From Escherichia phage OLB35, in the sequence record MH992122.1: DNA of 64,000 bases; one strand, given 5' to 3'. The translations under genes were made by a program, and so were the position numbers. How positions within the stretch are numbered: the first letter of the stretch is position 1; each line of letters starts with the position of its first letter. Below, one piece after another: positions 41,583-42,404 of this stretch. Under the pieces are notes generated by a model that saw only the letters and a program-made list of their open reading frames with translations, did not search any database and had not been told where the DNA came from.

Positions 41583-41886
41583 GCCTTGCGGTAACCTTGT
41601 CGGGGTTCCACCTGCTAAGGCAAGTGTTTGTACGAAACGCCGGGATTCGAACCCGGTTATTAAGCAGTTGACGCTACTCAATATTTTTAAAAGGCCATAT
41701 CTCGACCATATCCGAACGTTCCGTCAAAAACGCTACTCGGCTTACGGCAAAGATATTTCCTCGAATCGATAATTCGGTGCGCCGTTTCTGCTGTGATAGT
41801 AAAGAATCAGAACACAGTAAAACTGTGGGAGAAACTATACTCCAGGGAACATCAGTCCGACGACTTACCGGTAGCGACCCGGTTTC
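41583..41886 (-). ncRNA. Non-coding stable-RNA region with a tRNA-like T-arm (possibly analogous to T4 small RNAs)
   Basis: No plausible minus-strand ORF; contains CCGGG-TTCGAAT-CCCGG plus a repeated GAGTAGCG; bounded by tRNA-Arg and the terminator. No cloverleaf could be folded by hand. Confidence 0.3.
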
Positions 41887-42231
41887 TCATTTTGGCATAT
41901 CATCAATTTGCTCTCGACGCCGACGCCATAGATTAATCGCTTCATTAACACATTCGGCGTTTGGTATATGACGGCAATAATATAATGATTCGCGTTTCTG
42001 GAACCGATGTTGCAACGGGATTTCGTTTAAAAGATCTTTACGATCAAAGTATTCAAAACTAGTTAACCCTGAACGGTTTTTAATGAACTTCCAATGTCCG
42101 AATTCGTTTTGAACATAGATGTAATCGGCATGCTGATACAGCGAATTAATCAACCGGTCGGAAATAACTGTATCCTGTTCGTTAAAATAAAACGTTAAAT
42201 CATGAACTACCAGATAAATATTACCTTTCAT
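41887..42231 (-). CDS. Hypothetical protein inside the tRNA cluster
   Basis: 114 aa from the ATG at 42231 (MKGNIYLVVHDLTFYF...) with GAGGAAA; the longer track form would overlap tRNA-Arg. Confidence 0.5.
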   Translation of the reverse strand: MKGNIYLVVHDLTFYFNEQDTVISDRLINSLYQHADYIYVQNEFGHWKFIKNRSGLTSFEYFDRKDLLNEIPLQHRFQKRESLYYCRHIPNAECVNEAINLWRRRREQIDDMPK

Positions 42232-42249
42232 ATTTTCCTCACTTGAAGT

Positions 42250-42326
42250 TGGTCGAGACAGAAGGATTCTAACCTTCAACCTACGGATTAGAAGTCCGTT
42301 GCTCTATACAATTGAGCTATGCCTCG
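42250..42326 (-). tRNA. tRNA-Arg (anticodon UCU)
   Basis: Hand-folded cloverleaf: acceptor CGAGGCA/TGTCTCG, anticodon stem ACGGA/TCCGT with loop CTTCTAA, T-arm GGTTAGAATCC, encoded CCA. Confidence 0.8.
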
Positions 42327-42329
42327 AAT

Positions 42330-42404
42330 TGGTGACCCTGGCTGGTTTCGATCCAGCTACCTATCAGTTATGAGCTGACAGCTCTCCCATTGAGCTACAG
42401 GGCC
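42330..42404 (-). tRNA. tRNA with anticodon CAU (Met or Ile2-type)
   Basis: Acceptor GGCCCTG/CAGGGTC, D-arm GCTC-AATGGGA-GAGC, anticodon loop CTCATAA, T-arm GCTGG-ATCGAAA-CCAGC, encoded CCA; C4-G69/C5-G68 fit an Ile2-type tRNA. Confidence 0.8.

Follow-up and report, generated by a model that had tools for sequence, protein, structure and literature searches.

What do the roughly 300 bases encode that lie between the last protein gene and the terminator of a tRNA cluster in Escherichia phage OLB35? The cluster occupies positions 41,583 to 42,404 of a 64,000-nucleotide stretch of phage DNA (record MH992122.1), hereafter the window. An earlier note had described it as two tRNA genes, an embedded gene for a 114-aa protein and a stretch with no open reading frame (ORF), which might encode processed stable RNAs analogous to the T4 small RNAs, or else a degenerate or unusual tRNA. 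Both strands were read over 1.4 kb around the locus. The first of these proposals was borne out in a stronger form: on alignment, the 300-base stretch consists of the orthologues of the T4 RNA genes rnaD and rnaC. T4 rnaC and rnaD have been known since the 1970s, and their presence is an already known feature that is ordinary for a T4-like phage. Judged by sequence matches, the window is from a T4-like coliphage of the Mosigvirus type. T4-like coliphages made up almost all of the 851 records matched by megablast among phage genomes, and the best matches were to Mosigvirus-type phages, with vB_EcoM_KAW3E185 (95%) at the top.

The locus makes up the distal part of a tRNA operon of the T4 type, read as a single minus-strand transcript. 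Its order on that strand is tRNA-Ile2-like(CAU), tRNA-Arg(UCU), the 114-aa ORF, rnaD, a 6-nt spacer, rnaC, a trailer and an intrinsic terminator, with ~340 nt between the ORF and the end of the terminator. The elements that follow the ORF are:

41776..41890, minus strand: rnaD orthologue (T4 species 2 RNA), 115 nt, placed by mapping to T4 T4s002
41770..41775, minus strand: 6-nt spacer GAAUUA between rnaD and rnaC (AAAUUA in T4), from the alignment to T4
41631..41769, minus strand: rnaC orthologue (T4 species 1 RNA), 139 nt, 137/139 identical to T4s001
41581..41630, minus strand: 3' trailer, conserved, starting CAAACAC and containing a 7-bp hairpin (41626-41609)
41551..41580, minus strand: intrinsic terminator, a stem-loop (41580-41557) followed by U6 (41556-41551); free energy -15.6 kcal/mol, z -2.7

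The strong terminator announced in the earlier note is thus present as a hairpin and U6, and it runs ~35 nt past the left boundary of 41583 that was given there. The description of the stretch as lacking an ORF was loosely true: mechanical ORFs of 49-74 aa occur on both strands, but the homologues of this DNA are annotated as non-coding RNA genes.

The T4 record NC_000866 carries, right after tRNA-Arg, the misc_RNA features rnaC ('species 1 RNA', 139 nt) and rnaD ('species 2 RNA', 119 nt). The rnaC of the window aligned with T4s001 over its full length without gaps (98.6% identity). In rnaD, 40 of 40 nucleotides at the 5' end and 22 of 25 at the 3' end were identical to T4s002, and the central ~50 nt were unalignable; this central part differs from T4 in being the 'W-type' allele that is common to T2-like phages. 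Since the genes flanking the RNA block are 70-80% identical to T4 or unalignable, the RNA block is the best-conserved element of the neighbourhood. The order of rnaD, 6-nt spacer, rnaC, trailer and terminator, the strand and the tRNA-operon context are the same as in T4, and the terminator sequence is conserved in the alignment. In contrast to T4, the window has the 114-aa ORF between tRNA-Arg and rnaD, and only two tRNA genes are found in the 64 kb compared to eight at the homologous T4 locus. Annotations in other phages agree, with rnaC at the homologous place in ATK47 and both rnaC and rnaD in RB7. A covariance model built from rnaC homologues, with the window copy in its training set, scored that copy at 158.9 bits.

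The fold of rnaC was examined in 25 distinct homologues from T4, Mosigvirus, Winklervirus, Moonvirus, Karamvirus, Tegunavirus, Kanagawavirus, Marfa-like Klebsiella phages and IMG/VR contigs, covering at least eight genera; pair counts were made on 20 sequences and the loop-loop helix was scored on all 25. The homologues are 138-141 nt long. The minimum free energy (MFE) z-score of rnaC was -4.55, and the MFE fold and RNAalifold agreed on a four-way junction, to which covariation adds a pairing between two loops:

RNA positions 2-8/131-137, minus strand: acceptor stem, 7 bp (MFE, RNAalifold)
RNA positions 9-78, minus strand: long interrupted arm, ~27 bp (MFE, RNAalifold)
RNA positions 87-112, minus strand: third arm, 10 bp, loop CGUCAA (MFE, RNAalifold)
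RNA positions 114-130, window 41656-41640, minus strand: T arm, 5 bp, loop UUCGAAU (MFE, RNAalifold)
RNA positions 43-48/97-102, window 41727-41722 with 41673-41668, minus strand: loop-loop pairing UUGACG/CGUCAA (covariation)

The canonical T arm CCGGGTTCGAATCCCGG that had been noticed in the stretch is this fourth arm, and the acceptor stem runs directly into it. RNAalifold returned 45 pairs, 21 of them compensatory. Across the 52 pairs scored, 95.3% of positions were paired compared to ~38% with slid partners, and double changes were found at 22 pairs; none of 500 shuffles reached the observed values. In the acceptor stem, the pair A4-U135 is replaced by G-C in 11 of the 20 sequences, and in Tegunavirus the two U.U mismatches of the stem are converted to U-A and C-G. 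These comparisons indicate that rnaC is an expanded tRNA mimic in which the long ~27-bp arm and the 10-bp arm take the place of the D and anticodon arms. The suggestion of a degenerate or unusual tRNA is partly right, as to the acceptor/T-arm minihelix and the four-arm layout, and wrong as to a tRNA proper, there being no anticodon loop or D arm.

The 6-bp loop-loop helix can form in 25 of 25 homologues. It has undergone two independent double changes, to UUGAUG/CAUCAA in Tegunavirus and to UUGGCG/CGCCAA in Marfa-like phages, with zero single-sided changes. This is good evidence, from covariation, that the loop of the long arm and the loop of the third arm interact, as a kissing complex or a pseudoknot. 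The repeat GAGTAGCG reported in the stretch has exactly two copies in the 64-kb window (41738-41731 and 41679-41672, minus strand; 0.7 expected by chance in the whole window), and these form the 5' approach to the two pairing loops. Outside the T4/Mosigvirus group only AGCG and the loops of this region are conserved.

No standard cloverleaf could be folded by hand in the earlier work, and the programs agreed. ARAGORN and Rfam called no tRNA or transfer-messenger RNA (tmRNA) in 41547-41890, the canonical tRNA test failing on the 6-nt loop CGUCAA and the missing D arm of rnaC, and ARAGORN found zero tmRNA genes in the window. In Rfam, at gathering as well as permissive thresholds, only the two tRNAs were matched, and the database holds no family for rnaC, rnaD or their neighbours. 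The searches with ARAGORN and covariance models that had been proposed for this locus thus recovered both tRNAs and nothing in the 300-bp stretch; because Rfam lacks a family for these RNAs, the absence of a covariance-model match is misleading as a refutation. A weak Rfam match to isrK (E 0.38) was rejected. A search of 185,579 bacterial and archaeal genomes with the rnaC pattern gave two matches, both in metagenome-assembled genomes of Acidobacteria, which showed no other rnaC feature and are attributed to chance. The tRNA-like domain of tmRNA, the P1/P7 C4 antisense RNA precursor and the Y-RNA-like YrlA RNAs are RNase P substrates in which the rest of the molecule is not tRNA. As in rnaC, their 5' and 3' ends pair to give an acceptor stem that stacks on a T arm. 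In contrast to tmRNA and YrlA, for which neither ARAGORN nor Rfam gave a model match at the rnaC/rnaD locus, rnaC has no tag ORF or Ro-binding stem and has its own loop-loop pairing.

The rnaD RNA is built differently. Homologues were collected by searching IMG/VR and metagenomes with a conserved-core pattern, which also retrieved Pectobacterium phage phiTE (L048), and a further one, in Phapecoctavirus 536P1, came from BLAST. The fold comprises a 5' hairpin, H1; a terminal helix of GUCGUC(G/C) with (C/G)GGCG.AC; a further helix, interrupted by a CCC bulge; and an ACUGA/GAA internal loop. Two of its parts vary between homologues:

41883-41867, minus strand: rnaD hairpin H1, CCGG/CCGG in the window
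about 41842-41794, minus strand: rnaD variable apical hairpin, W-type allele CUCCCACAGUUUUACUGUGUUCUG

H1 is CAGG/CCUG in 536P1 and GCGG/CCGC elsewhere, there with loop inserts of 9 to ~60 nt. The core motif, AAGUCGUC...ACUGA...CCCUG / GAA.GGCGC, is present in all 20 homologues aligned. Its 18 pairs are 91.7% paired compared to ~30% with slid partners, 8 of them show double changes, and the unpaired motifs ACUGA, CCC and GAA are invariant. Together, these alignments indicate that rnaD is not tRNA-like and has a covariation-supported core capped by an exchangeable apical hairpin.

The apical hairpin occurs as discrete, mutually unalignable types. The W-type (CUCCCACAGUnnnACUGUGUUCUG) is common to the window, T2-like phages, Phapecoctavirus 536P1 and the 153-kb contig L046; a 'GGCGUACA' type is found in the T4-like contigs L015, L038 and L047 as well as in Pectobacterium phage phiTE and contig L041; and T4 and ATK47 have a third. 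Marfa-like and Slopek-like phages carry the W-type module too, there on another scaffold RNA. rnaD homologues extend to at least two further phage subfamilies, in Phapecoctavirus 536P1 (Stephanstirmvirinae) and phiTE (Vequintavirinae), where they abut tRNAs. In every homologue with flanks examined, rnaD lies in or beside a tRNA cluster, the exceptions being contigs L035 and L065. The core pattern had no match in the 185,579 bacterial and archaeal genomes.

In other genera rnaC is placed directly between tRNAs, for example as Trp-rnaC-Gly. It is precisely missing from the T4-like IMG/VR contigs L038, L045 and L047 and from phages vB_EcoM_CUA3 and vB_EcoM_005. The trailer is kept in these phages, and at the deletion junction rnaD is joined to it (…GGCGCACC-GAACACTTGCC…). 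Such natural, precise deletions mean that rnaC is dispensable in nature. In two further T4-like contigs, L035 (~3900-4100) and L065, the place of rnaC 3' of rnaD is taken by two similar GC-rich hairpin units, CGGGCGGTGCGCCCGGTAGTATG and CGGATGGTGCATCCGGTACTATG; in L035 a protein gene, not a tRNA, precedes rnaD.

Other conserved elements that are not tRNAs were seen in the tRNA clusters of other T4-like genera. One is an RNA of ~140 nt with a 9-bp terminal stem (UAUCUUUCG...CGAAAGAUA). A second, also of ~140 nt, reads GGCAGUCYARAGAGAUGAGU...GUUCCCAC...GUGUUCUAC...ACUCUYURGACCCGGA and contains the W-type hairpin module. Neither has an Rfam match. The contigs concerned are that of a Marfa-like Klebsiella phage (L040, ~12480-12765), L039 and L043, and, upstream of rnaC, L010, L020, L027 and L030. 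Two tRNA-like genes missed by ARAGORN and by annotation directly precede homologues of rnaC or rnaD, one in Erwinia phage Virsaitis27 (L003:1131-1202; Rfam tRNA, 36 bits) and one in 536P1 (L034, ~1419-1497), in which acceptor stem and T arm are present and the central part is odd.

How would the two RNAs be made, and what might they do? In the older T4 literature, RNase P is reported to make the 5' end of rnaC (species 1). The precursors of the T4 tRNA operon are processed by RNase P (review, PMC11143913), and T4 RNAC and RNAD accumulate late in infection as discrete RNAs, as seen by RNA-seq and northern blot (PMC9697503). We propose that the operon is transcribed from upstream, possibly from a candidate MotA-box-like promoter (TGCTTTA-N12-TATTAT, 42491-42467), and that RNase P and host 3'-trimming enzymes would mature the tRNAs. 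Through its acceptor/T minihelix, rnaC would be recognised by host RNase P, for the 5' end, and by the trimming enzymes, for the 3' end. rnaD would be released passively by the cuts made in its neighbours, on the tRNA-Arg/ORF side upstream and at the rnaC 5' end downstream, and compact structure would keep both RNAs stable. The stop codon of the ORF, TGA, overlaps the first bases of rnaD, so it would be lost on cleavage at the 5' end of rnaD, and ORF translation and RNA maturation may compete on one transcript.

Once formed, rnaC and rnaD would act in trans as dispensable accessory RNAs with a host-dependent benefit. rnaC would most likely engage a host factor that binds tRNA, as its ligand or as a decoy, and rnaD would most likely use its variable apical hairpin to engage a partner specific to the host or the phage. 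In T4, the tRNA region is non-essential (Brok-Volchanskaya et al. 2008; PMC2330249). When the T4-like phage BW1 was adapted to E. coli ECOR34, the only mutation common to three lines was in rnaD, and virulence (RBG) rose from 0.17 to 0.98 (PMC12685909); going by the coordinates in that paper, the mutation would fall ~73 nt from the rnaD 5' end, within the apical domain. This is the only experimental pointer to a host-specific role. We consider it very probable that the joint reading holds, in which orthology to rnaD and rnaC, the folds, tRNA-type processing and a dispensable, host-dependent role in trans go together.

Several points weigh against this joint reading. No function has been demonstrated for rnaC or rnaD in 50 years (PMC3014915, PMC9697503). 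The processing sites in this phage are inferred by homology. CAA, never CCA, follows rnaC in the genomes of all homologues, and the canonical T-loop is lost in Winklervirus (UGCAUC) and in the L010/L027/L030 lineage (UGCAUGC), so that a strict interaction with a tRNA elbow or a T-loop enzyme cannot be essential. The loop-loop covariation fits intramolecular pairing as well as intermolecular pairing in a dimer, the two arms being very unequal in length. An antisense scan with RNAduplex over 184 translation-initiation regions of the window did no better than shuffles (p ~0.07 for rnaD, ~0.72 for rnaC).

The features that make rnaC look like a tRNA could also mean that the 300 bp are decayed tRNA genes, pseudogenes or 'unusual tRNAs' that are without function and persist through their location in a tRNA cluster. 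The perfect T arm, the 7-bp acceptor stem and the four-arm layout fit this, as does the slot of rnaD, which in other genera is held by a tRNA upstream of rnaC. Related clusters do include decayed tRNA-like genes (L003:1131-1202; phiTE), and tRNA-Sec (RF01852) gives a weak match at 41632-41724 (16.6 bits, E 1.8, against a gathering threshold of 47). The internal 9-bp stem of this match, however, fails covariation, with no compensatory change and one pair broken in 11 of 20 homologues. There is also no anticodon loop and no ARAGORN or Rfam tRNA call, and the loops of rnaC that do not belong to a tRNA are invariant or covarying. Neighbour genes have drifted to 70-80% identity with T4 while rnaC has not, and its 22 pairs with double changes have been kept in at least eight genera, all of which makes decay very unlikely. 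A coding role has an almost negligible probability. The mechanical ORFs cross the region, and many phage records carry hypothetical proteins there, such as the opposite-strand coding sequence over rnaC in Karamvirus RZH; but substitutions keep base pairs and not codons, the lengths of homologues shift by 1-2 nt, and for T4 the characterised products are RNAs, annotated as misc_RNA.

Alternatively, the two elements could work only in cis, as processing punctuation and 3'-end stabilisers of the tRNA/ORF transcript, the excised RNAs being by-products. Their position would suit this, ahead of the terminator and past the last coding or tRNA element; tRNA-like punctuation is a known processing principle, the overlap of the ORF stop with rnaD would couple cleavage to translation, and rnaC has been lost precisely from some natural phages with the remainder intact. 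On the other hand, rnaC lies mid-array among tRNAs in other genera, where no extra punctuation is needed; invariant loops and a covarying loop-loop helix are unnecessary for a cleavage signal; and rnaD is invariant in its unpaired motifs in three phage lineages, with an apical hairpin that is swapped as a cassette. Together with the late accumulation of discrete species in T4 (PMC9697503) and the adaptive single-nucleotide polymorphism (SNP) within rnaD (PMC12685909), this makes a purely cis-acting role unlikely. The same SNP, and the hypervariable apical region with alleles common to several phage families, would also fit an antitoxin mimic of the pseudo-ToxI kind, directed against type III toxin-antitoxin abortive infection. 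This lead came from a BLAST match to phiTE, in which the rnaD homologue (~1487-1611) lies ~20 nt upstream of the annotated pseudo-ToxI (L048:1632-1690) in the same tRNA-cluster transcript context. The annotation merely abuts the homologue and is not inside it, Tandem Repeats Finder detected no tandem repeats in 41500-42450 (ToxI-like repeats are ~36 nt), and similarity to phiTE pseudo-ToxI was within the shuffled range (score 20 against a null maximum of 25). The lead was rejected, and we regard such a mimic as exceedingly unlikely.

The phiTE element is nevertheless a relevant comparison. Like the RNAs studied here, the experimentally characterised pseudo-ToxI (Blower et al. 2012; PMC3475682) is a phage non-coding RNA in a tRNA-cluster context, beside a rnaD homologue; its role is one of anti-defence. 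It is distinct from them in being made of ToxI-like repeats, and the window has no such repeats and no such similarity. In phiTE it sits inside an apparent decayed tRNA-Asn(GUU)-type gene (L048:1612-1728; NC_020201 ~106694-106810), whose 5' part (GACTCTATAGCTCAG.AGGT) and 3' part (TTAAGTCGCAGGTCCGAGGTTCGAACCC) match an intact tRNA of the related contig L041, where it follows the rnaD homologue. The ToxI-like repeats replace the segment from the D arm to the anticodon, and the 3' acceptor strand no longer pairs. No mention of this tRNA context was found in the searched parts of the 2012 paper (PMC3475682).

A broader reading of these comparisons is possible, though we hold it to be doubtful. 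rnaD could represent a family, so far undescribed, of modular scaffold RNAs that large enterobacterial myoviruses of at least three lineages (Straboviridae, Stephanstirmvirinae and Vequintavirinae) carry within their tRNA clusters, its swappable apical cassette setting a host-specific anti-defence or regulatory activity, and rnaC could be a loop-locked tRNA mimic that targets a tRNA-binding host factor. The convergent rnaD SNP of BW1 would fit a modular, host-specific cassette. The rnaC cloverleaf with its loop-loop helix, the core fold of rnaD, its occurrence beyond Straboviridae and its cassette-like alleles were not found in the searchable literature and may be new.

The remaining elements of the operon lie upstream of the RNA block:

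42467..42491, minus strand: possible T4 middle-type promoter, tentative, with MotA-box-like TGCTTTA (42491-42485), a 12-nt spacer and TATTAT (42472-42467)
42330..42404, minus strand: tRNA with CAU anticodon, CCA encoded (ARAGORN; Rfam tRNA, 59.4 bits)
42250..42326, minus strand: tRNA-Arg(UCU), CCA encoded (ARAGORN; Rfam tRNA, 71.1 bits)
41887..42231, minus strand: gene for a 114-aa protein, ATG at 42231 and stop TGA at 41889-41887

The TGCTTTA element is no more than a consensus match to the MotA box. The segment 42456-42503 is 87.5% identical to the region upstream of the T4 tRNA cluster, and few segments are so conserved. A generic sigma-70 scan found nothing on the minus strand at 42467-42491, and the late-promoter consensus TATAAATA had no match near the cluster. 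The two tRNAs, which adjoin each other in this phage, were both recovered as described in the earlier note; each has a full cloverleaf and scores above the RF00005 gathering value of 29. The CAU tRNA would be Met by its anticodon and is probably of the Ile2 type, read after modification of C34, like T4 tRNA-Ile. The Ile2-like identity pairs seen before are consistent with this, the acceptor stem GGCCCUG/CAGGGUC being found in T4 tRNA-Ile as well. The alignment places tRNA-Arg(UCU) in a lineage different from that of T4 tRNA-Arg, and neither tRNA is near its T4 counterpart in sequence, save for the acceptor stem of the CAU tRNA.

The 114-aa ORF is real. It is a precise insertion, bounded by the tRNA-Arg CCA and by the first bases of rnaD, and its ATG is preceded at a distance of 5 nt by the Shine-Dalgarno sequence GAGG (42240-42237). 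A longer version started at TTG is implausible because its start would fall inside tRNA-Arg. The product belongs to PHROG 3355 (phrog_3355, E 2e-50) and is RB69ORF150c-like. Only seven homologue clusters were found, one of them 100% identical and labelled as a hypothetical protein of Escherichia phage OLB35. Pfam gave no match at E<=1 except a sub-threshold DUF2654, NCBIfam gave none, a profile run against PDB sequences returned nothing relevant, and Foldseek found no PDB match with E<0.06 for the AF2 model, which has moderate confidence (pLDDT 72). As far as these profile and model comparisons can test it, the protein is, as had been claimed, not recognisably a GIY-YIG (SegB-like) homing endonuclease, PF01541 being absent; with a model of this confidence, a very remote relation in fold could have escaped the comparison. 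Homologues in the same slot were found in the T2-like contigs L011, L012 and L031 and in Mosigviruses, and none in T4, L015 or L017. Elsewhere in the window, two neighbouring small ORFs (39925-40152 and 40199-40366, minus strand) share their first 19 residues (MAKVSIDVVDYEYTEEVIR) and then diverge, as if a small gene had been duplicated in tandem at this site.

T2L offers a close parallel for the arrangement around this ORF. According to Brok-Volchanskaya et al. (2008; PMC2330249), the tRNA region of T2L, like the window, is without segB, has ORFs of no known function inside it and carries the genes for RNA species I and II. It differs in having more tRNAs (Met, Tyr, Asn, Arg and others). In crosses of T4 with T2L, SegB homing overwrites the T2L tRNA region, the whole of which is non-essential (PMC2330249). 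The three T2-like contigs have their homologue of the ORF at the corresponding place, in L012 together with a W-type rnaD. We infer that the T2L ORFs 'trna.1/trna.2' are equivalent to the 114-aa ORF of the window.

These findings have consequences for how such loci are read. The locus should be annotated as rnaD and rnaC. Automated pipelines miss these genes because they have no Rfam family, and in many GenBank records the 'hypothetical protein' calls placed over rnaC or rnaD are probably spurious; the opposite-strand coding sequence in Karamvirus RZH (L005:1120-1305) is one among many. rnaC and rnaD are among the oldest known phage non-coding RNAs. Their folds, the loop-loop helix, the natural deletions of rnaC and the cassette variation of rnaD make the role of the species 1 and 2 RNAs directly testable. 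If it is true that rnaD cassettes are determinants of host range or anti-defence, this would matter for the design of phage therapy with T4-like phages.

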